A stretch of 64,000 nt of DNA from Escherichia phage vB_EcoM_PHB13. The notes under the pieces were generated by a model that was given only the letters and a program-made list of their open reading frames with translations, searched no databases and was not told where the DNA came from. Made by a program: the position numbers and the translations under genes. The stretch is from sequence record MK573636. One strand, written 5' to 3'. Positions 649 through 44,481 of the stretch are shown here, piece after piece. Position 1 is the stretch's first letter. Every line of letters starts with the position of its first letter.

Positions 649-683
649 TTGACATGATGAAACGGGAGTAGTAAGATACTCCC
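649..683 (+). promoter_or_regulatory. sigma70-like early promoter (TTGACA / TAAGAT) with inverted repeat GGGAGTA-gtaaga-TACTCCC in spacer/-10 (promoter-early stem-loop type)
   Basis: read directly; identical 27-nt core recurs near 44181 and 44462. Confidence 0.5.
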
Positions 684-708
684 ATTTAAACAACTAGAGG
701 ATTATATT

Positions 709-1887
709 ATGGCTAAATTCTTTGAAGGTCATTACTATGCATTCCGTGAAGGTGGTAAAGATGAGTTTCTAGACTTTTCTCGCTATTCAATTATTCTGAC
801 CGATGCTTCGCGCCGTGGTCATATTCGGGTTGCTGAAATCGTCGAAAAGGGCTTTAAAGTATTAGAAAAAGATGACAACGGTCATGTTATTACTATTGAA
901 GCTGGAGATGTAGTTTATTCCGCTGAGGATATCGTTTATTATTGGGCTACTATGATTATGCACGATGAGCGTAAATACTTTAAACGCATCTCAAAAGAGG
1001 CATACGAAGCGATGAACAAGAAAGAGGATGCAATGCCGACTTACTTTGAAAAAGGTAAATGTTATTCGTTTACACCAGAAGGTTTGCAAGAATTTAAGCG
1101 ATTCTGGGGAGAGCATGATCCAGATCACAAAGAAGCTATGAAACTTGTTGATTTTGTCGAATATGGCTTTTTAGTTGAAGAAGAATTGCACGGATCAGCT
1201 ACCATGATCACCGCGAAAGGTGAAACTGTTAAGGCAGATCGTTTTTGTGATCAATGGGCTTGTGTGTTTGATGGTGGCGAATTTGAATACTTCGCGGAAA
1301 TCACGAAACAACAATTTCATTCTATGCAAGCGGATGGTCAGAGATTTAAAGTAGGTGAACGCTACAAGCCAAATCAGCATAATTTGCCATATTGGTTTAC
1401 CGCTGAAACTGTATCAAGTCATGTTGTTGAAATTGTTCAAAAGCTGGGACAAGGATTTAAGGTGACTAAAGTAGATGATTATGGAAGTGTTGACGCGGTT
1501 GAAATTGATGGTGTAGAATATACACCGAAATCTTTCGGGCTTTGCTGGTATCACTTGATCAGCAATGATGAACGTTATAACTTTGTTGAACTGCCATCTG
1601 AACCGGAAGAAGCACTAGAAGATCATGATCATCTGTCTGAACTGGTTAAACTGTTTGGTGATCTGCCGGATGGTGTAGGCGTGGCGGTAATGGGTGAAGG
1701 TACTGTTATTCGCAACCTGAAAGACCTTAAAAAGTTCTTGATTGACATGCTGCCTAAACTTGATGATAATCTCGATAAAGATATTCAGAATCGCAAAGAA
1801 ATTGTTAAAGATACTGAAAAAGAGATCGAAGAGATTCGAGCAATTCGCCAGAAGGTGAAAGCAGTAAAGAAAAAAGTTAGTGCTTGA
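709..1887 (+). CDS. hypothetical protein, three tandem copies of the family beta-domain plus helical C-terminus
   Basis: ORF track; internal repeats ending DERKYFKRIS / EFEYFAEIT / ERYNFVEL. Confidence 0.6.
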   Translation: MAKFFEGHYYAFREGGKDEFLDFSRYSIILTDASRRGHIRVAEIVEKGFKVLEKDDNGHVITIEAGDVVYSAEDIVYYWATMIMHDERKYFKRISKEAYEAMNKKEDAMPTYFEKGKCYSFTPEGLQEFKRFWGEHDPDHKEAMKLVDFVEYGFLVEEELHGSATMITAKGETVKADRFCDQWACVFDGGEFEYFAEITKQQFHSMQADGQRFKVGERYKPNQHNLPYWFTAETVSSHVVEIVQKLGQGFKVTKVDDYGSVDAVEIDGVEYTPKSFGLCWYHLISNDERYNFVELPSEPEEALEDHDHLSELVKLFGDLPDGVGVAVMGEGTVIRNLKDLKKFLIDMLPKLDDNLDKDIQNRKEIVKDTEKEIEEIRAIRQKVKAVKKKVSA

Positions 1888-1917
1888 CATGCGAAGGGAG
1901 TATGCTATAATACTCCC
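1884..1917 (+). promoter_or_regulatory. early promoter TTGACA-16bp-TATAAT with stem-loop GGGAGTA...TACTCCC
   Basis: read directly. Confidence 0.5.
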
Positions 1918-1941
1918 ACTTAACAACGAGAGGATTATATT

Positions 1942-2436
1942 ATGTGGGTACAAGATGTTTGGTATACTGTAACTAAAGAAAACCTTGACGCATTCAGCGA
2001 CCAATCTTGCGCTAATAGCTCAATTGCTGGTATACTTACTGATGTGTTTGGTGGTGTAGATAAAATTCGTTTTAAAGTTGTTGTTAGTTCGCTGGGTCAG
2101 GTGAAAGATCTTTACACCGAAGATAAAGACCTTGATCTTGAACTTCGTCTTCGTATTGATAATGCAAGTCTAGGTTATTGGTTTGAAGATAACGAATATG
2201 AATACTTCACACCAGCAATTAAAGTTTTTGCGACTAAACTGGAAGCTGTACTGAATCTACGACCAATTAATGTTGACGGCTACATTATCAAAAATATTCA
2301 GGATTGGGAGTTGTATCTAGATCAGGTTATCCGAAATAGTAAGCAGGAAGCCGCTAATAAGAAGCGACAAGAGATTAAACAGCTTAAAGCTGAACTGGAA
2401 GCGGCGGAAAAAGAATTAGCAGAACTGGTAAAATAA
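1942..2436 (+). CDS. hypothetical protein with family-like motif (EYEYFTPAIK) and coiled-coil C-terminus
   Basis: ORF track; SD GAGGATTATATT. Confidence 0.5.
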   Translation: MWVQDVWYTVTKENLDAFSDQSCANSSIAGILTDVFGGVDKIRFKVVVSSLGQVKDLYTEDKDLDLELRLRIDNASLGYWFEDNEYEYFTPAIKVFATKLEAVLNLRPINVDGYIIKNIQDWELYLDQVIRNSKQEAANKKRQEIKQLKAELEAAEKELAELVK

Positions 2437-2444
2437 CTATCAAC

Positions 2445-2468
2445 GAGCGGGAGAAATCCCGCTTTTTC
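2445..2468 (+). terminator. intrinsic terminator-like hairpin AGCGGGA-gaaa-TCCCGCT plus T-run
   Basis: read directly. Confidence 0.45.
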
Positions 2469-2480
2469 ATAGGTGATACA

Positions 2481-4343: not shown

Positions 4344-4348
4344 TTTTC

Positions 4349-4381
4349 AGCCGATCCGAAAGGGTCGGCTTTTTCGTTTTT
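4349..4381 (+). terminator. intrinsic terminator AGCCGATCC-gaaa-GGGTCGGCT plus T-run
   Basis: read directly. Confidence 0.55.
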
Positions 4382-4386
4382 GGGTG

Positions 4387-4414
4387 TTGACAACCTGATT
4401 AGCTAATGTATAAT
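4387..4414 (+). promoter_or_regulatory. sigma70-like promoter TTGACA-16/17bp-TATAAT
   Basis: read directly. Confidence 0.45.
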
Positions 4415-4443
4415 GCTCACATCGAAAACAACGAGAGGACAAC

Positions 4444-4986: not shown

Positions 4987-5003
4987 TAATGTGTGAGGTG
5001 AAT

Positions 5004-5531: not shown

Positions 5532-5535
5532 ATGC

Positions 5536-5564
5536 TTGACGGGGATCGCGAGATCCCCTATACT
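5536..5564 (+). promoter_or_regulatory. early promoter TTGACG / TATACT with stem-loop GGGGATC-gcga-GATCCCC in spacer
   Basis: read directly. Confidence 0.45.
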
Positions 5565-5606
5565 ATATTCATCAAGACGAGATACAACTTTACAGGAGAA
5601 TCAAAT

Positions 5607-8583: not shown

Positions 8584-8849
8584 TCGAGATATACGGTATA
8601 CCGAAAGAGGCTTATCATTGTTATGGTTGTATTAGTGCAATGAAGCTACTGGATGATCTGGGTATTCCGTATACACTTAAACCAGTATTCAAGCAGGTCG
8701 GGGTTGACATTATTCCCGACCGTGATATGATTGAAGAACTGGCGGGGAGGCTAAACTCAAAGAGCCTCCGGTTTGTATACCCCCAGATATTCATTGACAA
8801 CGAGCACATTGGAGGCTATAAAGAACTGAGGGCGATTTATGATTATTGA
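8580..8849 (+). CDS. nrdC: glutaredoxin/thioredoxin-like protein (NrdC/NrdH-like)
   Basis: 89 aa, CxxC motif CYGC near N-terminus, ...HIGGY...L motif; resembles T4 NrdC. Confidence 0.6.
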   Translation: MIEIYGIPKEAYHCYGCISAMKLLDDLGIPYTLKPVFKQVGVDIIPDRDMIEELAGRLNSKSLRFVYPQIFIDNEHIGGYKELRAIYDY

Positions 8850-11855: not shown

Positions 11856-11945
11856 TGGCTTTATAAGGGAGACTCCGAAAGGGGTTTCCCTTTTTATTTT
11901 TCTGTGATATAGTGAGAGCATCGAAAACGAAGAGAGGAAGAGACT

Positions 11946-12971: not shown

Positions 12972-13000
12972 TTGACGCGGGGAGAAATCCCCGTTATACT
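12972..13000 (+). promoter_or_regulatory. early promoter TTGACG / TATACT with stem-loop CGGGGA-gaaa-TCCCCG in spacer
   Basis: read directly. Confidence 0.45.
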
Positions 13001-17099: not shown

Positions 17100-17786
17100 A
17101 TGAAACTAACTAAAGAAACTGTTGCGATCCTGAAAAACTTTTCCGCTATTAACCCAGGTATCATCCTGAAAAAAGGAAACGTCCTGATCACCAAAAACAT
17201 GACAAACGTTGTATATGGTGAAGCGACTCTGAATCAAGAACTGGAACACGAAATCGGGATCTATGATCTTAACTCTTTCCTGGGCATTCTGAATCTGGTG
17301 GGCGATGAAGCAGATATTACGGTTGATAACCGCACCGGAAACATTCGTGTGTCTAATGATCGTCTGAAAATTAATTATCCTGGTGCTAGTGCTGCTGCTA
17401 TCGTATCACCGAAAGGCCGAGTTACTCCACCTGCAAGCGATGTAGATTACGAACTGAGCAACGACGATCTGAAACAGCTTATGAAAATGAGCAATCAGCT
17501 TAAAGTGGATCGCCTTGAATTTCTTCCGATTGATGGTCGTCTGATGATCAAAGGTTGGGAAGAGATTGACAAAAATAATCCTAATGAGATGTTTTGTCTT
17601 GATATGGGCGAATATACCGGAACCGCAGACTTCCATTTCTTTATTCGTAAAGATAACATGAAACTGGTTGCTACTGACTTCGGCGATTACAAACTTAGCT
17701 TCACTCGCCGTAAGGCTGTATGGCTGGCAAGTGAAACCGTATCTTATATGATCGCGTGTGACCTTGACTCAAGCTACACCGACTAA
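17100..17786 (+). CDS. 45: sliding clamp gp45
   Basis: N-terminus MKLTKETVAILKNFSAINPGIILKKG resembles T4 gp45. Confidence 0.9.
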   Translation: MKLTKETVAILKNFSAINPGIILKKGNVLITKNMTNVVYGEATLNQELEHEIGIYDLNSFLGILNLVGDEADITVDNRTGNIRVSNDRLKINYPGASAAAIVSPKGRVTPPASDVDYELSNDDLKQLMKMSNQLKVDRLEFLPIDGRLMIKGWEEIDKNNPNEMFCLDMGEYTGTADFHFFIRKDNMKLVATDFGDYKLSFTRRKAVWLASETVSYMIACDLDSSYTD

Positions 17787-17793
17787 TATAATA

Positions 17794-17822
17794 TTTGTGG
17801 GGAGTGTAAATACTCCCCGTTT
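17794..17822 (+). terminator. hairpin GGGGAGT-gtaaat-ACTCCCC plus T-run after gene 45 (terminator or promoter stem-loop)
   Basis: read directly. Confidence 0.4.
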
Positions 17823-19780: not shown

Positions 19781-19818
19781 ATAGGGGTATTGACAAACTA
19801 AGTCGATTCCCCTATAAT
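19781..19818 (+). promoter_or_regulatory. early promoter TTGACA-18bp-TATAAT flanked by inverted repeat ATAGGGG ... CCCCTAT
   Basis: read directly. Confidence 0.45.
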
Positions 19819-19850
19819 GAGTGTCTTTCGTAAGTGAAGGAGTTTATATT

Positions 19851-22529
19851 ATGTATTTTCTGTCATGTGAGCGAGTAGGTGATAAGATCTACGAGCGTTA
19901 TATTGATGATGCTGGACAAGAACAAGAGCGTTACGTTGAATATACGCCAACTTTATTTCATCATGCCGCGCCTGGTATGGTTACGAATTATAAAGATATC
20001 TATGGCAAGCCTTGCATTGCTAAAAAATTCCCCTCTATGAACGAGGCCAACAAATGGCGTAAAAAGATGGGGGAGATGGGGCAAGAGGCACTAGGGATGG
20101 ATGATTTTATCATCTCCTATCTGTCTGATACGTATAAAGGCGAGATTCGATATGACCGAAATAAAATCCGTGTAGCATGGGTTGATATCGAGGTCACTGC
20201 CCCAGAATTTCCTAAACCAGAAGAAGCGAAATATCCTATCGATGCAATTACGCATTATGATTCCGTACATGATCGTTTCTTTGTATTTGATTTGAAAGGA
20301 AAAAACGGTGAATCTTGGGAAGCAAGCAAGTCTATTCTTCGCCCAGATATTGTAGAACGTGTTGTTTATAACGTCTATGACACAGAAGATGAATTGCTGT
20401 TAGAATACATCCGATTCTTTGAGGAAAACCGACCCGTTGGTTTCACTGGCTGGAACACAGAAACATTCGATATTCCATATATCATTAAACGTATCAGTAA
20501 TAAGTTCGGAAGTAGAACCGCTAACCGTCTAAGCCCGTGCGGTAAGATTAAATCCCGAATCTCACAGGATGATTTTGGCAACGAGCGTGAAGCATTTACG
20601 ATCATGGGGATCGAAAGCCTTGATTATATTGACCTGTACAAGAAATTTAGCTTTACGACTCAACCAACATATGCATTAGATTATGTTGCTGAATACGAGA
20701 CAGGAATCGGTAAGGTTGATTATGATGGTCCGTTAAAGAAATTGCGTGATGACAACCATCAACTTTACATCGATTATAACATCGGCGACGTTGATCGTGT
20801 GCTGGCGATTGATAAAAAGCGTGGATTTATCGATCTGGTGTATAGCCTATGTTTCTATGCAAAGATTAAATTTAACCATGTTTATAACCCGATGAAAGTA
20901 TGGGATGCTATTATCTTCGGATCTCTGAAAGCTGAGGGTAAAGTAGTACCGGAAAATAAGATACAACCTAAGCAGACGTATCCAGGCGCATTTGTAAAAG
21001 AACCTGTGCCAAATGCTTACCGTTGGATGATGAGCTTTGACTTAACAAGTTTGTACCCATCTATTATTCGACAGGTTAATATTTCGCCTGAAACAATCGC
21101 TGGATCTTTTGATGCTGCACCGATGCACGAGTATATCAATAAAACTGCACCACGTCCTAGTGATGAGTATTCTTGCTCGCCTAACGGATGGATGTATCGA
21201 AAAGATATTCATGGTATCGTACCGATTGAGATTAAAAAGGTATTCGATCAGCGTAAGCAGTACAAAAACATGATGTTGGCATGTGATCGCAATGCTGAAC
21301 TATGTAAAGCGATTCTACACGATGAAAATCATGTTTATGGGGGAACCATTAGCTATAGCGTTGAAGTGCGTCACGACTTCGATGAAGCGTTTAAATCGAT
21401 GCTTTCTGAATTAAGTAAAGACGCCTTAGAGAAATTGCTGGAAGAATGTAAAGACGAGTCGATCTTGTGCAATACAAACCAGCTTTCTCGAAAAGTTTTG
21501 ATCAACTCCCTTTATGGTGCGTTGGGGAATCCTAAATTCCGTTTTTATGATCTCCGTAACGCTAGTGCGATCACACTGTTCGGTCAGCTTGCAATTCAGT
21601 GGATTGAGCGTAAGATTAACGAATACTTAAACGAGCTTTGCGGAACAACCGATTTTGCATATGTTCGTTATTGTGATACTGACTCCGTTTATGTGCTGGT
21701 TAACAATGTTGTTGATAAGGTTGGCGGGGAAGACCGTTTCGACGATACCGAAAAACTTGTTGACTTCCTTGATAATTTCGGTAAACATCGAATGGAACCT
21801 ATTATCGACAAGGGATATCGCGAGTTATGCGAGTACATGAACAACTATGAGCACTTGATGTTTATGGACCGCGAGGCAATTGCTGGTCCTCCGTTGAAAT
21901 CTGCGGGTATCGGTGGATTCTGGACTGGTAAAAAGCGTTATGCTCTTAATGTTTGGGATATGGAAGGAACGCGCTTTGCTGAACCTAAGCTAAAAATCAT
22001 GGGCTTGGAAACGCAACGTAGCTCCACCCCGAAAGCATGTCAGAAATCACTGAAAGAATGTATTCGCCGTATGTTGCAGGAAGGTGAAGAGTCATTGCAG
22101 GAATACTACGGTATTTTTGAGCAAGAATTTAGAAAACTTGACTATCTTGATGTTGCTGCGGTATCATCTGCAAACAACCTACAGAAATACAGCGATTCAA
22201 ACGGGTATCCGATTAAGGGTTGTCCGTATGCGGTTAAGAGTGTATTGTGTTATAATCGTAATGCTCGAAAATTCGGACTAGATCCGATTCGTGAAGGCGA
22301 GAAGGTTATGATTGTACCGCTGAAAGATCGAAATCCGTTTGGAGAAATCTGTTTTGGTTGGTTGTCCGGTACTCGTATTCCTCCAGAGATTGAAAGCGAG
22401 GTGTTAAAGTGGTTAGACTGGTCTTTGTTGTTTAATAAGACTTTCGTCAAACCACTGGAGAACATTACAACGGCTGCAAAGCTGCAATATGAAAAAGTGG
22501 CATCTCTTACAGACCTGTTTGACATTTAA
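19851..22529 (+). CDS. 43: DNA polymerase gp43 (family B)
   Basis: exo motif VDIEV, SLYPSIIRQVNISPET, polymerase motif CDTDSVYV; T4 gp43-like; start at ATG 19851. Confidence 0.95.
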   Translation: MYFLSCERVGDKIYERYIDDAGQEQERYVEYTPTLFHHAAPGMVTNYKDIYGKPCIAKKFPSMNEANKWRKKMGEMGQEALGMDDFIISYLSDTYKGEIRYDRNKIRVAWVDIEVTAPEFPKPEEAKYPIDAITHYDSVHDRFFVFDLKGKNGESWEASKSILRPDIVERVVYNVYDTEDELLLEYIRFFEENRPVGFTGWNTETFDIPYIIKRISNKFGSRTANRLSPCGKIKSRISQDDFGNEREAFTIMGIESLDYIDLYKKFSFTTQPTYALDYVAEYETGIGKVDYDGPLKKLRDDNHQLYIDYNIGDVDRVLAIDKKRGFIDLVYSLCFYAKIKFNHVYNPMKVWDAIIFGSLKAEGKVVPENKIQPKQTYPGAFVKEPVPNAYRWMMSFDLTSLYPSIIRQVNISPETIAGSFDAAPMHEYINKTAPRPSDEYSCSPNGWMYRKDIHGIVPIEIKKVFDQRKQYKNMMLACDRNAELCKAILHDENHVYGGTISYSVEVRHDFDEAFKSMLSELSKDALEKLLEECKDESILCNTNQLSRKVLINSLYGALGNPKFRFYDLRNASAITLFGQLAIQWIERKINEYLNELCGTTDFAYVRYCDTDSVYVLVNNVVDKVGGEDRFDDTEKLVDFLDNFGKHRMEPIIDKGYRELCEYMNNYEHLMFMDREAIAGPPLKSAGIGGFWTGKKRYALNVWDMEGTRFAEPKLKIMGLETQRSSTPKACQKSLKECIRRMLQEGEESLQEYYGIFEQEFRKLDYLDVAAVSSANNLQKYSDSNGYPIKGCPYAVKSVLCYNRNARKFGLDPIREGEKVMIVPLKDRNPFGEICFGWLSGTRIPPEIESEVLKWLDWSLLFNKTFVKPLENITTAAKLQYEKVASLTDLFDI

Positions 22530-22572
22530 GATAAAGTGTGTATAATGGCGGGTGTTGGGTGACGATACCCGC
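22519..22572 (+). promoter_or_regulatory. promoter TTGACA-16bp-TATAAT followed by hairpin GGCGGGT...ACCCGCC
   Basis: read directly; overlaps gene 43 stop. Confidence 0.4.
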
Positions 22573-22590
22573 CAATGTGAGAAATATATT

Positions 22591-28836: not shown

Positions 28837-28898
28837 TTGACACTACTCTATCATGGTTTTATTATGCCTCCCGTCGAAAGATTGGAGGCTTTTTTATT
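28837..28898 (+). promoter_or_regulatory. promoter TTGACA-17bp-TATTAT followed by hairpin GCCTCC...GGAGGC that contains the SD, then U-run and AUG
   Basis: read directly. Confidence 0.4.
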
Positions 28899-33192: not shown

Positions 33193-33280
33193 GTCATATA
33201 CTTGACAATCACTCAATTTTTAATATGATTGTTGCAGCCGTCTTTGTGGCGGTTGCAGTAAGTTATGGTTATGTTATGTA

Positions 33281-34024
33281 TTGGAGAGAGAAAAAGTGAA
33301 CATCAAAAAGTTTATTGTTGATGTTCTGGAGGCGAAAAGCGGAAATAGACTAAACTCAAATCTTTTTAAAGAAAATAAAATTCCAGAAATGGAAAAATTG
33401 TATCCTGCGGAATTTCAGATTATAAGGAATGAGTTTAAGTTCTGTAATGGAGGTCTCAGAAATCAACAACCATATAACGAGGCTGTTTATAGATTGCGCC
33501 ACGGAATAACAGGAATAGTTAAATGTGCAAGATGCCCAAATCCCGTAAATTATCATACATACTCTAGAGGCTATCATAAATTTTGCTGTTCTCGTTGCGC
33601 ATCGTTGGACCAGGCACAAAACATAAAGATTGAACGAGAATGCGCTAAATGTGGTAAACCATTTGTTGCAATAAACGCATCTCAAAAGTATTGTTCTGAT
33701 GCGTGTCGATTGTTTGAGAAGCGAGAGCGAGAACTAGATAGGCCATATCATCATGCAGAAAATGGTATAAAAATATCAAAAAGAGAAGCGTTGGAAATTT
33801 TAGGTAGAGTTGACAATTGCGAGATATGCGGTGTAAAATTCATAAATGAACGATGCGGCGAGAGAAAACGCCAAAAGTGGAAACATCTTGACCATAATCA
33901 TAAGACTGGTAAGATAAGAGGTGTTCTTTGTGGAAAATGTAATGCCGGATTAGGAATGTTCAAAGACGATCCTCAAATATTATATGCGGCATTGGAATAC
34001 CTGAAACGAACTGACGGAGAATGA
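33281..34024 (+). CDS. HNH / endonuclease VII-family nuclease with Cys-rich zinc fingers (probable homing endonuclease)
   Basis: C-terminal motif LDHNHKTGKIRGVLCGKCNAGLG; AT-rich relative to flanks. Confidence 0.6.
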   Translation: MEREKVNIKKFIVDVLEAKSGNRLNSNLFKENKIPEMEKLYPAEFQIIRNEFKFCNGGLRNQQPYNEAVYRLRHGITGIVKCARCPNPVNYHTYSRGYHKFCCSRCASLDQAQNIKIERECAKCGKPFVAINASQKYCSDACRLFEKRERELDRPYHHAENGIKISKREALEILGRVDNCEICGVKFINERCGERKRQKWKHLDHNHKTGKIRGVLCGKCNAGLGMFKDDPQILYAALEYLKRTDGE

Positions 34025-34030
34025 TATAAT

Positions 34031-35854
34031 ATGTCTGAATTTTTGCTGTTAGATGATCGCGCTCACTGTCTTAAGAGACCTTCAATGTACATCGGGTCAA
34101 CTACTTATGAATCACATAATCGTTTCCTATTTGGAAAATGGACCAAAGTTTCATACGTTCCCGGTCTAGTTAAAATTATTGATGAAATTATCGACAACTC
34201 TGTAGACGAGGCGATCCGCACTAATTTTGAGTACGCTAATGTTATTAGTGTGGATATAAAAGATAACATTGTGTCAGTAACAGATAATGGTCGCGGTATT
34301 CCGCAACATATTGTTACGACGCCAGAAGGGAAACAGATTCCACAACCAGTTGCTGCATGGACACGAGCTAAAGCAGGGTCTAACTTTGATGATACAAATC
34401 GTGTTACTATGGGTATGAATGGGATCGGAAGCGCGCTCACATCATTTTTCTCGTCCTGGTTTACTGGTGTGACGTGTGACGGAGAGAATGAACTGACCGT
34501 TCAATGTACCAATGGTGCAGAAAATATTAGCTGGTCATCCAAGCCGTCAAAACTGAAAGGAACTAAGGTTACGTTCTGCCCCGATTTCGATCATTTTGAA
34601 GGTATGATCATGTCACAAGAAATTTCAGATGTGATTTGCGACCGAATGTATTCATTGAGTGTAATCTTTCCTAAGATCACGTTTAAATTTAACGGCAAAA
34701 AGATAACCAGCAAGTTCAAGGATTATGCTAAACTATACAATGATGATCCGTTTGTCATCGAGGATAAAAACTTCTCACTTGCCCTAGTTCCTGCGGTCGA
34801 GGGAGAAGGTTTTAAATCAGTATCCTTTGCTAATGGTCTGTTTACCAAAAACGGGGGAACACACGTAGACTACGTGACAGATGATCTTTGTGAAGAGATT
34901 GTAAAACGAATCAAGAAAGAATATAAGGTTGATGTTACTAAAGCTGCGGTTAAGTCTGGATTGACCTGTATTCTTATTGTTCGTGAATTGCCAAACCTCC
35001 GTTTTGATTCACAGACAAAAGAACGATTGACTAATCCAACTGGTGATATCAAGCGTCATATTGATCTTGATTTTAAAAAGCTGGCTAAAGTCATTGCGAA
35101 GAAAGAAAACATTATCATGCCTATTATTGCTGTAGTCCTGGCACGCAAAGAGGCAGCAGATAAAGCGGCAGCGACTAAGGCAGCAAAGGCAGCAAAACGG
35201 GCTAAGGTAGCAAAACACGTTAAAGCTAACCTTATTGGAACTGACGCAGAAACTACCCTGTTTTTGACGGAAGGTGATTCCGCGATCAACTATCTGATCT
35301 CTGTACGTGATCAAGATTTACATGGCGGTTTCCCATTGCGAGGTAAAACTCTTACAACATGGGAACAACCGGAGGCAAAGATCGTTAAGAACGCCGAAAT
35401 TTTTAACATCATGGCTATCACTGGTTTGCAATTTGGTGTTGATGCATTGGAAGTTATGCAATACAAAAATATTGCGATTATGACTGACGCGGATACCGAC
35501 GGGATCGGGTCTATTAAACCTAGTCTGATCTCCTTCTTTGCACGTTGGCCTGAATTGTTCGAAGATGGACGAATCCGGTTTATCAAAACGCCTATTATCA
35601 TTGCTGAACCAAAGAAAGGTGATGATGTTCGATGGTATTATGACCTAGAAGATTTCGAGAACGACCGAGATAATATCAAAGGTTACAACATTCGATATAT
35701 CAAAGGTTTAGCATCGCTCACAGAATCAGACTATCATCGCGTGATCAACGATCCTGTCATGGAGATCATCACGTTACCGGAAAACTATAAAGAGCTATTC
35801 GATTTGCTCTATAGTGAAGATGCAGATCAGCGCAAAATTTGGATGCAATCATAA
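34031..35854 (+). CDS. 39: DNA topoisomerase II large subunit, contiguous gp39+gp60-equivalent (GHKL ATPase plus Toprim)
   Basis: DNSVDEA, DNGRGIP, TEGDSA, IMTDADTDG; 607 aa covers T4 gp39 and gp60 regions. Confidence 0.85.
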   Translation: MSEFLLLDDRAHCLKRPSMYIGSTTYESHNRFLFGKWTKVSYVPGLVKIIDEIIDNSVDEAIRTNFEYANVISVDIKDNIVSVTDNGRGIPQHIVTTPEGKQIPQPVAAWTRAKAGSNFDDTNRVTMGMNGIGSALTSFFSSWFTGVTCDGENELTVQCTNGAENISWSSKPSKLKGTKVTFCPDFDHFEGMIMSQEISDVICDRMYSLSVIFPKITFKFNGKKITSKFKDYAKLYNDDPFVIEDKNFSLALVPAVEGEGFKSVSFANGLFTKNGGTHVDYVTDDLCEEIVKRIKKEYKVDVTKAAVKSGLTCILIVRELPNLRFDSQTKERLTNPTGDIKRHIDLDFKKLAKVIAKKENIIMPIIAVVLARKEAADKAAATKAAKAAKRAKVAKHVKANLIGTDAETTLFLTEGDSAINYLISVRDQDLHGGFPLRGKTLTTWEQPEAKIVKNAEIFNIMAITGLQFGVDALEVMQYKNIAIMTDADTDGIGSIKPSLISFFARWPELFEDGRIRFIKTPIIIAEPKKGDDVRWYYDLEDFENDRDNIKGYNIRYIKGLASLTESDYHRVINDPVMEIITLPENYKELFDLLYSEDADQRKIWMQS

Positions 35855-35856
35855 CA

Positions 35857-35895
35857 CTTGACATACAAGGGAGATTCTCTATAATGGGAGTCTCC
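35857..35895 (+). promoter_or_regulatory. early promoter TTGACA / TATAAT inside inverted repeat AGGGAGA...TCTCCCT, followed by T-run
   Basis: read directly. Confidence 0.45.
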
Positions 35896-35919
35896 CTTTT
35901 CTTTTATGAGGATTTAATA

Positions 35920-36226: not shown

Positions 36227-36262
36227 TTGACACTGGATCGGGGATATATCATAATGTCCCCA
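36227..36262 (+). promoter_or_regulatory. early promoter TTGACA ... CATAAT with short GGGGA / TCCCC inverted repeat
   Basis: read directly. Confidence 0.4.
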
Positions 36263-36276: not shown

Positions 36277-36480
36277 TTGACTTATATGAAACCGTTTAAG
36301 AATGAAGAAACTCAAAAATTTTGTGAAAAAATTGCAGAAATCTACTTGACAGGGAATAAGGAAAAAGCTAATATTATGTTCAAAGAGTCGGTTTCCATGA
36401 TGAAAGTAGCACGCTGGGAACTGATCGCAATGCAAGACCAAATTCGTTATCTAGTAACAAAGGAGAATCAAAATGCGTAA
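36277..36480 (+). CDS. hypothetical protein
   Basis: ORF track, 67 aa. Confidence 0.35.
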   Translation: MTYMKPFKNEETQKFCEKIAEIYLTGNKEKANIMFKESVSMMKVARWELIAMQDQIRYLVTKENQNA

Positions 36481-36667
36481 CCATTACATCGAACTGGCAA
36501 GCCGTAAAGTTTCCGATCTGAAAGGCGTAATTGCTTACTATGAAGAAGTCTTGAAAAACGAAATAGCTGATTGGGAACGTAAAGAATACAGCAAGTGCTT
36601 AGAGAAAAGCCGCGCTGAACTGGTTGACGCAGAAGCCCATCTGCAATGGGTGATTGAAAATGTATAA
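36473..36667 (+). CDS. hypothetical protein
   Basis: ORF track, 64 aa. Confidence 0.35.
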   Translation: MRNHYIELASRKVSDLKGVIAYYEEVLKNEIADWERKEYSKCLEKSRAELVDAEAHLQWVIENV

Positions 36668-36677
36668 GGAGTAGAAA

Positions 36678-36935
36678 ATGAGTCGAAGTTTTGATTTTCT
36701 GATCGCCAAGTGTCATCGAGAAAAGAAATCGATGGACCTGTTTATGGAGTGTTTGAGGTATGAATATGCGCATCTTCATAAACACAAAATTGATCCGCAA
36801 GTTTCCTACGAAAACATCAAGAAATATGCGAAAGAAGTGATTGACAACGATTGCACCGTGACATATAATGCGTTTATTGATTTATGGGCGTGGGATGTAA
36901 TCTACGCAGAGATGGACAAAGAAGATTTTAATTAA
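36678..36935 (+). CDS. hypothetical protein
   Basis: ORF track, 85 aa. Confidence 0.4.
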   Translation: MSRSFDFLIAKCHREKKSMDLFMECLRYEYAHLHKHKIDPQVSYENIKKYAKEVIDNDCTVTYNAFIDLWAWDVIYAEMDKEDFN

Positions 36936-36949
36936 GTGAGGATTATATT

Positions 36950-39058
36950 ATGAAAATGCATATTGATAATGAAGAAGTATTTGGCAGTGACTTGAGCGGT
37001 GCGGTTGATTTTTCACTGAAAGCAAGTAGCAAGGCTTTTATGGTGCTTTCTAAGAACACTTATCAATATTGTGAGCGTGCTTGCGTCCGTGAGTATTCGT
37101 GCAATGCTACCGACACTCACAAAGAAGCCGGAACCTTAGATCGTCCGTTTGATATTCATTTACCGACTGCAATCGAACCGTATTTTTCTGTGCGTGATTA
37201 TGGTACTGGTATTCCGTCTAAGAAAGAATTAGAACAACTGTTTACGGTTTACTTTGAATCAACAAAAGACCAGACTAATGACTATATCGGGTCTTTTGGT
37301 TTGGGTGCGAAGTCTGCTTATAGCTATACCGACACCTTTACAATCGTAAACTATTACAATGGTCGCGCTTATGGCTTTACGGCATTTGTGCAAAACTCTA
37401 TGCCGAAAATGGTGCAGATTTTCGACGAACCGACCTATGAAGACAATGGTCTGAAAATCACTATTCCGGTGAAAGAAAAAGATATTAAAACATGGCATCG
37501 AGAAGCACAATTTGTACTGCGTCATTTTGGGGAACATAAACCGAATATCAACGCAATCGAAATTAACTATTTCCCTAGCTTTGATAATTATTATGTGTGT
37601 AATGGGCGTGATAACGATTCCTACGTGGTATATGCAATCATGGGTAAGATCCAGTATCCAATCCCGTATGAATATATTCGCGGAACATGGTTAGAAGCTG
37701 TAAACCGCCAGCACCAGACCATTTACATTAATTTTGAGTTGGGTGATCTGGACCTGATGCCATCGCGTGAAGAAGTTCACTTGTCAATTGAGACTAAAGC
37801 GAACATCGAAAAACGTATTGCAGAAATCAATGAAATGATGTTGGAAAAGGTTAAAGAAAAGATCGCCAGCATTGAAACAGAGCGTAAACTTGCTCAATTT
37901 ATGAGCGAGTATTCATCGACTCAACGCAATATTATTGGCAAGATGGGTAAGATCGGACAATGGGATGATCCGGTAGCAATCTATAATAAGTTTGTGAATG
38001 CTGGCAAAGATTCACCCAATGACGTAGAAGGACAGGTGTATACTCTGTATCATACTCGTCACACAATCAGTAAATTGCGCCCTGCTTTCGTTAGCAGTCA
38101 ATACAACATTACGCATTTTGTATGGATGCATAAAGAAGATATTACGTGTCTTATTGATGATACCGATAAACCGAAACTGCGTGCACTGACTCTTAACGGC
38201 ATGGTCCAGGAATACGGCATCAATAAAAAGGTGCTGGTGTTCCGTCAGAACAACGAAAAACATATGGAGACTTTCGAGTACATCAAACAGTATTATGATG
38301 ATTCTGAAATGACCGTGATTAAGGTATCAGAGGCCGATGATCTTCGTGCTAAAGCAATTAAGCCGGAGAAGACCGAGCGTACACAACGTGAATCAACTCC
38401 TAAGCTGCCTAACGTGTATATCATGGAAAAGATTGGTGACAGTTGGCATAAAACCAGCCATCATATGAAAGCGGCAGAGATTCGCGAGTTATCAGGCTTG
38501 CACATGTTCCGCGTGGGTGATGCATTCGAAAGCCGTAGCCGTCAATCGATCTATAATGAAAATACATTACACACGGCGCTTGACTACTTCGGGGTAACAA
38601 AGTATATTATTACCCGTAACGAGACACAAAAATATCTCGTTGACGAACAATTGGAATGTGCGCTAGAATTTGTTCGCGGTAAGCTGGCTGGTCTGGCTAA
38701 GAAGGTTAAGACCAATCATCTGGGGTATGGCGAATATCTGGGTGTGATCACTATGTTGTTTCATGACGATGAACTAGAACGCTGTGTTCCAGAATTTATT
38801 GACAGACTGTACGGTCGTCATTATAATAAAGAGGTTTCCAAGTTACTCCTTCGTACTCGTTGGATTATGGACGAAGAAACTAAAAAGATCTGTGATGAAA
38901 AATTCACGGCAGCAAACGAACGAATTAAAGCAGTTTGTGCGAAGTTTAAAGAGAATAGCCCGTTACTGTATGATATTGTAGATAACTGGTATCGTATTCT
39001 GCATAACGACAAACGCGCACAAGACTTTATGAAACTGGTTAAGAATGTTAAATTTTAA
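36950..39058 (+). CDS. rIIA: rIIA protein (GHKL ATPase-like N-terminus)
   Basis: 702 aa, motif DYGTGIP / GSFGLGAKSAY; synteny 39-rIIA-rIIB. Confidence 0.8.
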   Translation: MKMHIDNEEVFGSDLSGAVDFSLKASSKAFMVLSKNTYQYCERACVREYSCNATDTHKEAGTLDRPFDIHLPTAIEPYFSVRDYGTGIPSKKELEQLFTVYFESTKDQTNDYIGSFGLGAKSAYSYTDTFTIVNYYNGRAYGFTAFVQNSMPKMVQIFDEPTYEDNGLKITIPVKEKDIKTWHREAQFVLRHFGEHKPNINAIEINYFPSFDNYYVCNGRDNDSYVVYAIMGKIQYPIPYEYIRGTWLEAVNRQHQTIYINFELGDLDLMPSREEVHLSIETKANIEKRIAEINEMMLEKVKEKIASIETERKLAQFMSEYSSTQRNIIGKMGKIGQWDDPVAIYNKFVNAGKDSPNDVEGQVYTLYHTRHTISKLRPAFVSSQYNITHFVWMHKEDITCLIDDTDKPKLRALTLNGMVQEYGINKKVLVFRQNNEKHMETFEYIKQYYDDSEMTVIKVSEADDLRAKAIKPEKTERTQRESTPKLPNVYIMEKIGDSWHKTSHHMKAAEIRELSGLHMFRVGDAFESRSRQSIYNENTLHTALDYFGVTKYIITRNETQKYLVDEQLECALEFVRGKLAGLAKKVKTNHLGYGEYLGVITMLFHDDELERCVPEFIDRLYGRHYNKEVSKLLLRTRWIMDEETKKICDEKFTAANERIKAVCAKFKENSPLLYDIVDNWYRILHNDKRAQDFMKLVKNVKF

Positions 39059-39069: not shown

Positions 39070-39201
39070 ATGACTAAACTGACCGCTATCCAGAAAGAAA
39101 CCATCCGTAAACAATACGCTCGCGGCTTGACTAAAGGCGAACTGGCACGAATCTATAATGTATCAGACCGCACAATCCGCAAGGTTGTAGAAGCAAAATA
39201 A
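39070..39201 (+). CDS. small helix-turn-helix protein (43 aa; ...GELARIYNVSDRTIRKV)
   Basis: not in track; SD AGGTGATATT then ATG. Confidence 0.3.
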   Translation: MTKLTAIQKETIRKQYARGLTKGELARIYNVSDRTIRKVVEAK

Positions 39202-39254
39202 TTCTGGTATAATGATGTGAATCGGGCGGCGATAGTCGCCCAACTAATAGAGGA

Positions 39255-40256: not shown

Positions 40257-40270
40257 CAGAGGAATTAATT

Positions 40271-40597: not shown

Positions 40598-40642
40598 TCA
40601 ACATAGGCCGCTTTGCGCGGCCTTTCTTAGAGGGAATACATT

Positions 40643-40936
40643 ATGACGGTCACGGTTATTACCAAATACGACGACGAAAATATGATTTACGGTGACGTGG
40701 TTGTTGTTCACGGTCGTAGCATGAAAGTTACTGGTAATTGTAAAGATGGTGCTATTATTTGTGGTGAATTGGTGAGAACAGTCAATCCTATCACCGACGA
40801 ACAAAAGCGAGTCATTATCAGAAAACTTAAAGACAGTGGATATTGTAACGTCGTGGTGATTCAAGAAAAAATTGAAGTAGGCCACTTATACACAAATCAG
40901 AAAACAATTCCGGTATCAATGGTTAAAGGCGGTTAA
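40643..40936 (+). CDS. hypothetical protein
   Basis: ORF track, 97 aa. Confidence 0.4.
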   Translation: MTVTVITKYDDENMIYGDVVVVHGRSMKVTGNCKDGAIICGELVRTVNPITDEQKRVIIRKLKDSGYCNVVVIQEKIEVGHLYTNQKTIPVSMVKGG

Positions 40937-40938
40937 TA

Positions 40939-41301
40939 ATGCTAGGTCATTCTAAAATAGAAGATTGCTCATTCAGAGCAATGAAAGATGATTTTTCGGT
41001 CCTGTACGCGTCTATCCGAGAGTTGTTTGTAGATTTTAAGCAATTCAGAGAATACAAAGGCGTTAAGATGCGGGAGTGGGTATTCTGGCCTTTCTATATC
41101 ATTACTCTGTTTTCTATGGTATTTTGTTTTGTCGGGATCACTATCGCTAGTTTTGTCACTTGCGTTTTCCTGATTATCAGGTGTATCATGTTTGCTTTGA
41201 TTGCTGCCCCGTTTATTGTTTCAATCCTTCCGTTAAAATGGCTATTGGATTGGGCTGATAAATCTGATAAAGTAAAGAATGTGATTTGTAAGCGTGTATG
41301 A
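40939..41301 (+). CDS. hypothetical integral membrane protein (2-3 TM helices)
   Basis: ORF track; long hydrophobic stretches. Confidence 0.45.
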   Translation: MLGHSKIEDCSFRAMKDDFSVLYASIRELFVDFKQFREYKGVKMREWVFWPFYIITLFSMVFCFVGITIASFVTCVFLIIRCIMFALIAAPFIVSILPLKWLLDWADKSDKVKNVICKRV

Positions 41302-41308
41302 GGTGAAG

Positions 41309-42673
41309 ATGGATAAAATTAGTCAAATTGTAAACACATTTACTTACCGCAGCCTTGAAAGCATTGTACATAATGAAGCTAAGGAATATGCGATCTATTC
41401 TGCCGAGGAACGCGGGATTCCTCAATTAGTGGATGGGCTTAAACCAGTGCAACGCTTTGTTATGGAGTGCGCACTTCAAAAGAGTAAAGGCGACCGTAAG
41501 AAATTCCGTAAGATGGCAGATATTGGATCTGGTGTTGCTGAGTTGGGTTATCACCACGGGGAAACTAATGCCGTAGAAGCCGGATCACTCATGGCGAATA
41601 CATGGAGCAATAATACTCCACTGCTTGACGGTCAAGGTAACTTCGGATCGCGTTTAGTCCAGAAAGCAGGTGCGGCACGTTATATCTTTGCTCGTGTGCA
41701 TGAAAACTTCTTTAAAATCTATAAAGATATGAATTGCGCACCTAAGCACGAAGATCTGGAACACATCCCGCCAGCATTCTACTTGCCAGTTGTGCCAATG
41801 GTATTGGCTAATGGTATTAGTGGTATTGCTACAGGGTATAAAACTGACATTTTACCGCATTCACTGGAAAGCCTTATTGAATGCACAGAGCTAGCACTTG
41901 CCGGAAAACTGGATAAAGAACCTAGTGTTCAATTCCCAAAATTCACGGGTAAAGTTATCCCGCGAGATGATCGCGATGGTGTGATTCTTGAGGGTACATA
42001 TGAACTAAACGGCAAGACTAAACTGACAATATCAGAAGTTCCTTATAAGTTCGACCGTGAAGAATATGTGGCGGTACTGGATGCGCTGGAAGAAAAAGAT
42101 CTGATTGTATCGTATAATGACCGTTGCTCTAAGGACGGATTCAGATTTGAAGTAACACTGAAACGCGATTATTTCAAAAGCGAAGATGAATCCGCTCGAC
42201 ATGAGCAAATCATGAAGGATTTTAAACTAACGCAGTTAGTAGCCCAGAATATCGTGGTAGTTAATGAACGTGGCTTAGTTGAAGTATTCGAGAAAGCGAG
42301 CGATCTGATCCGTCGATTCGTCGAAATCCGATTAGGGTATGTCGATAAACGCATTGAATTGATGCAAGCGGAAACGCTGGAAGCATACAATTATGCAATG
42401 GCTAAAGCCAAATTTATCGACCTTGTAATTAAGGGCGAAATCGAGCTACAGGGAAAGAAAAAGGCCGAGGTAATGCAATCCATCAATGGACATGAAAAAC
42501 TGCGTCCATACGCCGATAAGCTAGTTTCTATGCCATTGTATAGCGTTACTCAAGAAGAGTATGATCGACTGGTCAAAGATGCCGAGAAACATCATAGTGA
42601 ATATGAGTATTGGACAAAGACGACCGCAATGAAGGAATATAAGAAAGATCTTAAAGAACTTAAGAAGGGTTGA
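41309..42673 (+). CDS. 52: DNA topoisomerase II medium subunit gp52 (GyrA-like)
   Basis: strong similarity to T4 gp52 (GLKPVQRFV, LLDGQGNFGSR, RYIFARV); start at ATG after SD GAGGTGA. Confidence 0.9.
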   Translation: MDKISQIVNTFTYRSLESIVHNEAKEYAIYSAEERGIPQLVDGLKPVQRFVMECALQKSKGDRKKFRKMADIGSGVAELGYHHGETNAVEAGSLMANTWSNNTPLLDGQGNFGSRLVQKAGAARYIFARVHENFFKIYKDMNCAPKHEDLEHIPPAFYLPVVPMVLANGISGIATGYKTDILPHSLESLIECTELALAGKLDKEPSVQFPKFTGKVIPRDDRDGVILEGTYELNGKTKLTISEVPYKFDREEYVAVLDALEEKDLIVSYNDRCSKDGFRFEVTLKRDYFKSEDESARHEQIMKDFKLTQLVAQNIVVVNERGLVEVFEKASDLIRRFVEIRLGYVDKRIELMQAETLEAYNYAMAKAKFIDLVIKGEIELQGKKKAEVMQSINGHEKLRPYADKLVSMPLYSVTQEEYDRLVKDAEKHHSEYEYWTKTTAMKEYKKDLKELKKG

Positions 42674-42873
42674 TTATGAAAGAATATCCAGAAGGCGGTT
42701 ATATTGCATTTCTGTACAACAATAAAAAGATTGTGCCAATTGTCGTTGAAACACTGGAAGAATCCAACCGGATCACCAGTGAATCTCTGAGCAAATTAGC
42801 AGAGATGACAAACACGCCAGAACACAGAGCAAAGATCGACAGCTTGATGAAAGAATTATCAGAGAGGAAATAA
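42670..42873 (+). CDS. hypothetical protein
   Basis: ORF track. Confidence 0.35.
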   Translation: MIMKEYPEGGYIAFLYNNKKIVPIVVETLEESNRITSESLSKLAEMTNTPEHRAKIDSLMKELSERK

Positions 42874-42876
42874 ATT

Positions 42877-43272
42877 ATGACTGAACGACGCATCACTTCA
42901 AATGGTTTGGGTACTCATCATGCATGGATGGTTGACCCAGACAAAAATCCTTATAAACTTTACGATACAACGATTAAACCGTGGAATAATGGCGTATGGA
43001 AAACACCACACACAACAGCACCTATTATGACTGATCCGAAACCGATTAGCCCGATGGCGGAACCAGTACAGATTAAGCCGTTACCTTACCAGATAACAAC
43101 GAATAGCATCGCCAACAAACAAGAAAATGATATTGATATGATCTACGAGATGATTAAACTTTGGCGTGATGTTTATCTGGGTGTTCTCTGCAACACAGAT
43201 AAAAGTGCACATGCGGCAGCGGTACTGGCATCTCATGCAGTAGACGAAGCCAAAAAGAAATTTAGTAAGTAA
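42877..43272 (+). CDS. hypothetical protein
   Basis: ORF track, 131 aa. Confidence 0.4.
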   Translation: MTERRITSNGLGTHHAWMVDPDKNPYKLYDTTIKPWNNGVWKTPHTTAPIMTDPKPISPMAEPVQIKPLPYQITTNSIANKQENDIDMIYEMIKLWRDVYLGVLCNTDKSAHAAAVLASHAVDEAKKKFSK

Positions 43273-43281
43273 CTGATTATT

Positions 43282-43310
43282 AAGCCGATCCTTGTGGTCG
43301 GCTTTTTTAT
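43282..43310 (+). terminator. intrinsic terminator AAGCCGATCC-ttgt-GGTCGGCTT plus T-run
   Basis: read directly; same hairpin inverted near 53208. Confidence 0.55.
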
Positions 43311-43322
43311 TTTAAAAAGTTG

Positions 43323-43351
43323 TTGACTTACAGAATCCAACATTGCATAAT
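43323..43351 (+). promoter_or_regulatory. sigma70-like promoter TTGACT-17bp-CATAAT
   Basis: read directly. Confidence 0.4.
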
Positions 43352-43382
43352 ACACCCATACCAAACAAAAGGAGAATCAAAG

Positions 43383-43655
43383 ATGTGCAACGAAAACAGC
43401 AAAGTGTTGGCAATTGCAGATAAAGTAGGTTACTGGAAATGCTGGGATGATATGGAGAAATTAGGCGGTCGCTATCTCGATAACTTAGAGTTGCATTATT
43501 GCCAAGCGCGTAATGCAGAAGTTGCGGGAGTAGCAATCGAAGATATTCCGTCTAAAGTCTTCGGATTCTCTAAAGATGATACTCTAGAGTATGTTTTTAA
43601 GGCTGTAATGGATCAAGCATGGGAAGACGCAGAGACACGCGCTCTTGATTGGTGA
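43383..43655 (+). CDS. hypothetical protein
   Basis: in-frame ATG within track ORF 43320..43655 after SD AGGAGAATCA. Confidence 0.4.
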   Translation: MCNENSKVLAIADKVGYWKCWDDMEKLGGRYLDNLELHYCQARNAEVAGVAIEDIPSKVFGFSKDDTLEYVFKAVMDQAWEDAETRALDW

Positions 43656-43659
43656 TAAT

Positions 43660-43878
43660 ATGAACTGGTATAAAATTTGGAAAAATCAGGTGGAGGCTTA
43701 TCTAGGGTATAAGCCCACCGACGAAGAATTACTCGATGCAATGTACGAAGACGGACTAAATCCGAAAGTAGCCGCGCGAGAATACGCGGAATGGATGAAG
43801 GTCGAAGATAACCTAGAGGCAACGAAAAATTTTCACGAAAATAATAAAAAAGCAGTTGACGCCAAAGGTCATCGATAG
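43660..43878 (+). CDS. hypothetical protein
   Basis: in-frame ATG within track ORF 43645..43878. Confidence 0.35.
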   Translation: MNWYKIWKNQVEAYLGYKPTDEELLDAMYEDGLNPKVAAREYAEWMKVEDNLEATKNFHENNKKAVDAKGHR

Positions 43879-43918
43879 TATTATACTCCCATACCGAAAC
43901 GAACTGGAGGAAATAAAA

Positions 43919-44161
43919 ATGGTTAAAGTTAATGTTATCGAAGTTGCACTGTACGACGCTGGAATCTTCCTGAATGAAAAAGAAGCTGCCGTGCTCGATG
44001 AACTGAAAACTGTTTTTGTTCCTGTAGTAGAAGACGTTGAAGCAATTAAAATCGCTTCTCGTAAACTGTCTCGCGAAGCATTCGACATGATTGATCCGGT
44101 TTTCAAAGTTATGCACGAATGCGCGGTTATGATGACCGAAGAAGAAGCGAAAAATTTCTAA
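43919..44161 (+). CDS. hypothetical acidic protein
   Basis: in-frame ATG within track ORF 43856..44161 after SD GGAGG. Confidence 0.4.
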   Translation: MVKVNVIEVALYDAGIFLNEKEAAVLDELKTVFVPVVEDVEAIKIASRKLSREAFDMIDPVFKVMHECAVMMTEEEAKNF

Positions 44162-44168
44162 AAACCAG

Positions 44169-44203
44169 TTGACGTAAAGAAACGGGAGTAGTAAGATACT
44201 CCC
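44169..44203 (+). promoter_or_regulatory. early promoter TTGACG with stem-loop GGGAGTA-gtaaga-TACTCCC (same core as 649..683)
   Basis: read directly. Confidence 0.5.
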
Positions 44204-44226
44204 ATACCAAACGAAAGGAGAATCAC

Positions 44227-44439
44227 ATGAAATCTATCGAGCAAGTAGTAACAGAGTTTATGAGCTACGAAGGAAACCGCATCTTTGGACGTTCTCAAGT
44301 TCGCGAGATCGTGGAAGAGGTCTCTGGAGAGTTTGCGGAATCTGGTCACGTTATCACGCAAGAACGTAAAGAAGAAGCAGTAAACCAGATCATGGCTATG
44401 CAGAAAATGCGTATTAATGCACGAGCGGGTAAAAATTAA
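44227..44439 (+). CDS. hypothetical protein
   Basis: ORF track, 70 aa. Confidence 0.4.
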   Translation: MKSIEQVVTEFMSYEGNRIFGRSQVREIVEEVSGEFAESGHVITQERKEEAVNQIMAMQKMRINARAGKN

Positions 44440-44446
44440 AAAGTAG

Positions 44447-44481
44447 TTGACACCGGATTAAGGGAGTAGTAAGATACTCCC
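44447..44481 (+). promoter_or_regulatory. early promoter TTGACA with stem-loop GGGAGTA-gtaaga-TACTCCC (third copy)
   Basis: read directly. Confidence 0.5.

Follow-up and report, generated by a model that had tools for sequence, protein, structure and literature searches.

We found that a 64,000-nt stretch of Escherichia phage vB_EcoM_PHB13 (sequence record MK573636; "the window" hereafter denotes this whole stretch) carries twelve early promoters interleaved with GC-rich inverted repeats. These units are, in all likelihood, promoter early stem-loops (PeSLs), the compact intergenic cassettes of RB49-like phage that combine an early promoter, an insulating hairpin and a patch of recombination homology. 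PeSLs were defined in RB49 and phi1 by Arbiol, Comeau, Kutateladze, Adamia and Krisch in 2010, and comprise a promoter of σ70 consensus with an AT-rich upstream region, a stem-loop and, from the open reading frame (ORF) that follows, the Shine-Dalgarno sequence and start (PMC2839356). The stem-loop is generally of the form GGGG...CCCC and can lie at any of five places with respect to the promoter boxes; each genome holds 51-52 PeSLs, mostly in hyperplastic regions before ORFans and also on both sides of gene 43 (PMC2839356). In the same study, lacZ fusions gave promoter and terminator activity for some PeSLs, and a mini-circle-mediated exchange of cassettes was proposed and partly demonstrated. 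PeSLs were later extended to other T4-likes (Comeau et al. 2014, PMC4122927), and our literature search for PeSL follow-up yielded nothing beyond these two papers. An original prediction, made from the letters of the window, had already named the promoter-early stem-loop architecture, and rightly so: the window belongs to the RB49-like group in which PeSLs were defined, and, judged by sequence, its units display every feature by which this already known element is recognized.

Over its first 8 kb, the window was compared with 58 Krischvirus genomes and was 95-98% identical to them, with RB49, MIZ4 and G2494 the closest relatives (97-98%), a similarity by which its source is an RB49-like Krischvirus, a T4-type coliphage. 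Positions 1-39058 were collinear with the reverse complement of RB49, running from about 38870 back to position 1, and the remainder of the window picked up at the right-hand end of the RB49 record. It follows that early genes are carried on the + strand of the window. All twelve units lie on that strand and are given below with their promoter boxes and stem arms (dG, RNA folding energy in kcal/mol; z, z-score).

649..683, + strand: PeSL before the frd.2 homologue (709-1887); -35 TTGACA 649-654, -10 TAAGAT 672-677; stem GGGAGTA 664-670 / TACTCCC 677-683, with the -10 box within the loop and 3′ arm and a predicted start at about 684.
1884..1917, + strand: PeSL before the p057 homologue; -35 TTGACA 1884-1889, -10 TATAAT 1906-1911; stem GGGAGTAT 1896-1903 / ATACTCCC 1910-1917 (dG -13.3, z -5.5).
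5536..5564, + strand: PeSL before a 50-aa DUF7170 ORF and nrdG; -35 TTGACG 5536-5541, -10 TATACT 5559-5564; stem GGGGATC 5541-5547 / GATCCCC 5552-5558, in the spacer.
12972..13000, + strand: PeSL between gene 47 and the p038 homologue; -35 TTGACG 12972-12977, -10 TATACT 12995-13000; stem CGGGGA 12978-12983 / TCCCCG 12988-12993, in the spacer.
17764..17818, + strand: PeSL between genes 45 and 44; -35 TTGACT 17764-17769, -10 TATAAT 17787-17792; stem GGGGAGT 17799-17805 / ACTCCCC 17812-17818, downstream of the -10 box (dG -13.6, z -4.0).
19781..19818, + strand: PeSL between regA and gene 43, driving the gene 43 DNA polymerase; -35 TTGACA 19790-19795, -10 TATAAT 19813-19818; arms ATAGGGG 19781-19787 / CCCCTAT 19809-19815 flanking the -35 box, the 3′ arm overlapping the -10 box (dG -17.7, z -3.1).
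22519..22573, + strand: PeSL at the 3′ border of gene 43; -35 TTGACA 22519-22524, -10 TATAAT 22541-22546; stem of 12 pairs with G-U, core GGCGGGT 22547-22553 / ACCCGCC 22567-22573, predicted start at about 22553 (dG -23.7, z -6.8).
28837..28895, + strand: PeSL between gene 56 and modB; -35 TTGACA 28837-28842, -10 TATTAT 28860-28865; stem GCCTCC 28866-28871 / GGAGGC 28884-28889, then TTTTTT (dG -15.0, z -4.3).
35858..35906, + strand: PeSL between gene 39 and the p005 homologue; -35 TTGACA 35858-35863, -10 TATAAT 35880-35885 forming the loop; stem of 13 pairs, two of them G-U, 35867-35879 / 35886-35898, then TTCTTTT, a canonical terminator shape (dG -21.3).
36227..36261, + strand: PeSL between the p005 and p004 homologues; -35 TTGACA 36227-36232, -10 CATAAT 36250-36255; stem with one G-U pair, GGGGATAT 36240-36247 / ATGTCCCC 36254-36261 (dG -14.4, z -3.9).
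44169..44203, + strand: PeSL before ORFan cassette A (44227-44439); -35 TTGACG 44169-44174, -10 TAAGAT 44192-44197; stem GGGAGTA 44184-44190 / TACTCCC 44197-44203.
44447..44481, + strand: PeSL before the p262 homologue (44509-45309, with an LprI-like domain); -35 TTGACA 44447-44452, -10 TAAGAT 44470-44475; stem 44462-44468 / 44475-44481.

The original prediction had claimed at least ten hairpin promoters and listed nine. All nine proved real, each with a -35 box, a spacer of 16-17 nt, a -10 box and a hairpin, but the tally had to be enlarged by at least the units at 17764, 22519 and 28837, and two positions needed adjusting (the site near 19781 is the 5′ arm of a unit whose -35 box lies at 19790, and 35857 becomes 35858). 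Every one of the twelve has TTGAC(A/G/T), N16-17 and either TAnnnT or CATAAT, and agrees with the consensus at 9-12 of 12 positions. The consensus of 15 aligned early promoters runs from an A-rich region (AAnnnAAAAAA upstream of TTGAC) through TTGAC, N17 and TAtAAT to ACTCCCAT or ACACACAT, an AAAC-rich leader, GAGGA and ATATATTATG; RB49 early promoters prefer C at -3 to -1, and their predicted consensus agrees with mapped 5′ ends (PMC1524935). Stop codons of upstream genes lie 0-15 nt before the -35 box or, at 1884, within it, where the TGA of frd.2 sits inside TTGACA, and in every unit GAGGA or GGAG and then ATG follow 26-45 nt after the -10 box. The hairpin is found in the spacer (5536, 12972), over the -10 box (649, 1884, 35858, 36227, 44169, 44447), around the -35 box (19790, and a unit at 8704 described below) or just after the -10 box (17764, 22519, 28837). 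That the units stand before novel ORFs, as predicted, is true insofar as seven of the ten ORFs behind them belong to no Pfam family and an eighth has only a domain of unknown function (DUF), but these ORFs are conserved Krischvirus hypotheticals (so annotated in RB49, Phi1 and GEC-3S, with genes 43, 44 and modB as exceptions), and one unit precedes gene 43.

RNA folding of the nine sites first noted gave -11.9 to -21.3 kcal/mol (z -2.8 to -5.5), and of all twelve units -11.9 to -23.7 kcal/mol (z -2.8 to -6.8), with equal or better folding in 0-3 of 200 dinucleotide shuffles per unit. Strong hairpins accompanied 8 of 22 intergenic promoters compared to none of 39 intragenic promoter-like matches (Fisher p = 1e-4), and of the window's 19 distinct perfect GC-rich hairpins, 7 had a + strand TTGAC no more than 40 nt upstream (binomial p = 4e-4). 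The association between promoters and hairpins is not a matter of chance. A scan of both strands of the window against Rfam 15 returned no family at the gathering score. At 22519, 35858, 36227 and 19790, the transcribed sense was 4-10 kcal/mol more stable than the opposite sense by virtue of G-U pairs, and this sense bias of the stems points to a role at the RNA level.

Assuming a start about 7 nt past the -10 box, the transcription start falls beyond the 5′ arm in 11-12 of the twelve units; the mRNA of a unit itself therefore cannot form the hairpin, whereas RNA reading through from upstream can. In the mechanism that we propose, host RNA polymerase would recognize a strong σ70-type early promoter interleaved with a G-run/C-run inverted repeat, and the geometry of the unit suggests that it would leave the 5′ arm behind and produce hairpin-free mRNA. 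Read-through RNA from upstream would hold both arms, and its hairpin may serve as terminator, attenuator or 3′-end cap, a role that reporter assays have shown for other RB49/phi1 PeSLs and that we propose for those of the window, with the result that each small gene would have its own start and be insulated from its neighbour. Many units have long stretches of the unit of about 70 nt, from A-rich region to Shine-Dalgarno, in common and would offer a homology patch to the phage recombination machinery, at which ORFan cassettes appear, from the comparison of genomes, to be gained, lost and recombined by a pathway of this kind. At 28837, the 3′ arm includes the Shine-Dalgarno GGAGG and is followed by U6, and the predicted start falls just past the 5′ arm; in this arrangement, read-through RNA would be terminated or masked and the unit's own transcript would be translatable.

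The exchange of cassettes could be followed in a hyperplastic slot on the + strand (43273..44508) bounded by the conserved homologues of p267 and p262. A stretch of 2.2 kb around units 44169 and 44447 was highly mosaic, with at least 80% of it present in only 14 of 58 genomes. Among 13 genomes, the slot measured 616-1911 nt and held seven ORFan cassettes in the fixed order G, B, E, C, A, F, D, of which ten combinations were counted, with these arrangements:

Window and 011D4: B-C-A.
RB49 and JSE: B-A-D.
GEC-3S and MIZ4: B-E-C-A.
kaaroe: B-E-C-A-F.
E26: B-C-A-F-D.
Phi1: B-A-F-D.
SSG23 and Brandy: G-B-E-C-A-D.
ECD7: A-D.
G37-3: G-A-D.

Cassette F is the phi1 ORFan 263.1, which was listed as a differential gene (PMC2839356). 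At cassette junctions, the upstream cassette dictates the sequence 5′ of TTGAC and the downstream cassette the sequence 3′ of it. Two junctions are chimeric: the crossover of the G-A junction in G37-3 lies within the shared GGGAGTAGTA..TACTCCCATACCAAAC, and that in ECD7 lies in the shared 5′ untranslated region/leader and Shine-Dalgarno region. Most cassette boundaries of the slot lay at or inside promoter units, and comparison across the whole window placed these breakpoints 1-37 nt from units. This comparative pattern supports a shuffling role of the units, and the part of the original prediction that invoked gene shuffling was supported by the ten combinations and two chimeric junctions that appeared once flanks were compared across relatives.

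Three of the units (649, 44169 and 44447) are nearly identical. A 27-nt core had been predicted to be the same at all three, at coordinates that were 1-3 nt off; the 27-mer GAAACGGGAGTAGTAAGATACTCCCAT is exact at two (659-685 and 44179-44205), but the third copy shares only 22 nt and has the upstream flank ATTAA instead of GAAAC. The 22-mer GGGAGTAGTAAGATACTCCCAT occurs three times (664-685, 44184-44205 and 44462-44483), with zero occurrences expected from shuffles, and a scan of IMG/VR with a 20-nt core matched three Krischvirus-like contigs only. GGGAGTA-N6-TACTCCC recurs in the loci examined from other Krischvirus genomes, with up to five copies in a single 49-kb stretch. An extra hairpin of this form is found in RB49 at 39096-39115, between gene 49 and p060 and about 230 nt to the left of window position 1; counting this copy beyond the window edge, the stem family numbers at least four in this genome region. 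The core at 649 was unchanged in 8 Krischvirus genomes. Five haplotypes were seen for the A-cassette unit, of which that of the window agrees with unit 649 at each of the three variable sites; the pattern fits ectopic conversion, though we do not claim concerted evolution of the trio, three sites being too few. Crossing over between the copies that lie 43.5 kb from each other would remove gp43, gp41, gp61, gp46/47, rIIA, rIIB and others, so that these copies, predicted to be recombination substrates, can matter in that capacity only through gene conversion or mini-circle insertion and not through viable deletion.

Several observations weigh against the units acting as insulators and points of exchange. 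No U-tract follows the stems at 649, 44169, 44447, 1884 and 36227 (tails ATTTAAAC, ATACCAAAC, ATCAAGAAA, ACTTAACA and ATCGAAAA, respectively), which by the usual rules would be weak intrinsic terminators; only 35858 (TTCTTTT) and 28837 (TTTTTT) have the intrinsic-terminator form, with a U-tract after the stem. The perfect stems of the trio carry no strand information. Single-sided, stem-breaking changes occur among orthologues in GEC-3S, Phi1, G37-3 and kaaroe, and no compensatory pair changes were found among orthologues, in genomes more than 95% identical to one another; hence only the comparison of one unit with another lends support by covariation. Cassette A, which lies between two copies 278 nt apart, was present in 13 of 13 genomes, so that identity of sequence is not by itself a predictor of loss. 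Roughly half of the indels among relatives are homing-endonuclease genes and not PeSL exchanges.

The hairpin may not terminate transcription at all, and could instead act post-transcriptionally on the upstream mRNA, as a 3′-end cap against exonucleases or a processing or pause signal, while polycistronic read-through continues. Most stems lack a U-tract and many are short (7-8 pairs, -12 to -14 kcal/mol), as would suit such a role, and the G-U pairs would still mark a structure of the sense-strand RNA. We nevertheless consider this rather unlikely, as the stem-loop of another RB49/phi1 PeSL cut lacZ expression as strongly as rrnB T1 (PMC2839356), the spacer-class units (5536, 12972) place a U/A-rich -10 box directly after the stem, and true U-tracts are present at 35858 and 28837.

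Units were found at equivalent positions in seven relatives (RB49, Phi1, MIZ4, kaaroe, GEC-3S, OZ035808 and LF73P4), with nearly invariant stems and variation mainly in the loops and at -10 positions 3-4 (TAAGAT, TATTAT, TAACAT, TAATAT and TAAAAT). In two units the loop was inverted between genomes and the stem unchanged: at 5536 (loop 5548-5551) the window has GCGA and OZ035808 its reverse complement TCGC, and the loop of the D-cassette unit reads GGC in RB49, JSE and ECD7, as against GCC in Brandy and G37-3. These flips look like small inversions of the kind made by hairpin or template-switch events in DNA and are compatible with folding at the DNA level; they do not show that DNA folding drives cassette exchange. 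An inverted repeat acting as DNA could be an operator for an early-shutoff phage protein or a site at which recombination is initiated, by a GGGG...CCCC-binding protein or by endonuclease VII cutting hairpins or cruciforms. The arms do overlap the spacer, -10 or -35 box, where a bound protein would block RNA polymerase, and all stems have their G-run 5′ and their C-run 3′; the loop inversions would also agree. However, at least five different stem sequences in five promoter-relative positions are a poor fit to one sequence-specific protein, G-T pairs are tolerated in the sense orientation only, and crossover points are spread across the unit instead of being focused at the stem, and we regard a DNA-level function of this sort as improbable. 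Stems of 6-8 bp with loops of 4-6 nt are short for cruciform extrusion. A binding protein was raised as speculation by the authors of the PeSL study (PMC2839356). We likewise give little credence to the idea that the repeats also fold as DNA during replication or recombination and so mark units for exchange by endonuclease VII or a GGGG/CCCC-binding protein; if true, PeSLs would form a quasi-site-specific cassette system.

The common stem has as its 3′ arm (ACTCCC) the C-rich stretch that precedes the start, and ACTCCCAT, ACACCCAT or ACACACAT also follow the -10 box in the hairpin-less promoters at 43856, 43323, 29406 and 62834; a hairpin is present where the spacer holds a G-run complementary to this stretch. 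That the hairpins are functionless by-products, with this shared C-rich discriminator as 3′ arm and G-runs derived from duplication of one ancestral promoter unit (four to five units have a GGGAGT/ACTCCC stem and are possible copies of one unit, and the lack of compensatory changes would be expected), is highly implausible, as unrelated stem sequences (GGGGATC, CGGGGA, GGCGGGT, GCCTCC and AAGGGAGAUUCUC) all keep pairing, the 39 intragenic promoter-like sites have no hairpins, stems stay nearly invariant while loops vary, and published reporter data (PMC2839356) argue for function.

Beside the twelve PeSLs, the window contains three related units:

43856..43884, + strand: related early promoter before cassette C (43919-44161), TTGACG-N17-TATTAT, then ACTCCCATACC; the latter is the 3′ arm sequence, and as the complementary 5′ arm is missing there is no hairpin.
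39216: weaker unit upstream of rIIB.
8696-8731 (8704): PeSL-like unit within the nrdH coding sequence, with arms GGTCGGGG and TCCCGACC around TTGACA and TATGAT 16 nt downstream; kept in all relatives checked.

The promoters at 4387, 43323 and 62834 each stand directly behind a canonical terminator, and the window thus spans a continuum from separate terminator and promoter to fully overlapped units. TTGAC occurred 127 times on the + strand of the whole window and 67 times on the - strand, and the coding regions of the + strand held many consensus-grade promoter-like sites. In the leader of gene 43 (about 19832-19847), a small hairpin, CUUUC-GUAAGU-GAAGG, may be the gp43 translational operator; its loop is UAAG in the window and most relatives and UAAA in RB49, the latter sequence having been discussed previously (PMC3014915). 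The p262 homologue that borders the cassette slot (44509-45309) has an LprI (lysozyme-inhibitor) domain, and its homologues in IMG/VR, 62-76% identical, lie on viral contigs of about 24-36 kb, mostly from bacterial isolate genomes, so an exchange between lytic phage and other elements is possible for this gene. No PeSL was found upstream of p262 homologues on these mostly unrelated IMG/VR contigs, which were of no use for covariation.

Homing-endonuclease genes and other indels that distinguish the window from its relatives were as follows:

Window position 11945: HNH gene p040 in RB49 and MIZ4.
Inside gene 43 of MIZ4: HNH gene.
LF73P4 36397-37120, orthologous to window 35826-35858: HNH-AP2 endonuclease gene, the stop codon of which abuts the -35 box of unit 35858.
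Inside unit 62834 in RB49: p240 endonuclease.
Window 33278-34084, also in MIZ4: 805-nt insert, with 66 nt instead in RB49, Phi1, kaaroe, OZ035808 and LF73P4.

The 589-nt LF73P4 insert abutting 35858 was considered as a PeSL-bounded indel and rejected, since it encodes the HNH-AP2 homing endonuclease; promoter units also receive homing-endonuclease genes. Within the 33278-34084 insert, the ORF at 33389-34024 has an Endonuclease_7 domain (E = 4e-16) and is probably a mobile homing-type endonuclease, situated next to gene 39. Elsewhere, the window has 580 nt (58182-58763) where RB49 has 32 nt; an ORF of 82 aa there (58526-58774) showed an AP2 domain that scored 32.0 bits, just under the cut-off of 33.3, and is possibly the remnant of an HNH-AP2 homing endonuclease.

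Taken as PeSLs, the units of the window offer a concrete mechanism by which large lytic phages could shuffle small accessory genes with operons left intact. For annotation, such intergenic repeats can be read as early promoters with built-in insulators, the ORFs behind them as early-expressed accessory genes, and the region at 43.3-44.5 kb as a cassette hotspot. The window adds small extensions to what is known of PeSLs, namely the predicted start past the 5′ arm, the 3′ arm as a generic promoter discriminator, the U-less trio, ten cassette combinations in 13 genomes and loop flips between genomes, and no new kind of element.

The PeSLs of RB49 and phi1 are the nearest known system. They agree with the units of the window in genus, loci (the borders of gene 43 and ORFan 263.1), promoter, stem-loop, upstream stop codon and Shine-Dalgarno/start codon, as well as in their placement before ORFans and in bounding indels between relatives. 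Nothing essential differs; the window has loop and -10 variants of its own and shares the B-C-A combination with 011D4, and the 'effective terminator' property measured for PeSL211/210 is not simply transferable to its U-less trio. Rho-independent terminators resemble the units in having a GC-rich hairpin at the end of a gene, with a U-tract at 35858 and 28837, whereas most units of the window lack the U-tract and interleave the hairpin with a promoter. Integron cassettes and the 'linker' exchange of Botstein and Campbell are similar in that small promoter-associated cassettes are swapped at short conserved boundaries, and circular intermediates have been reported for PeSLs (PMC2839356). Unlike integrons, PeSLs have no integrase or attC-type site and their crossover points are scattered within the unit, and exchange appears instead to use general homologous recombination over the regulatory unit of about 70 nt.

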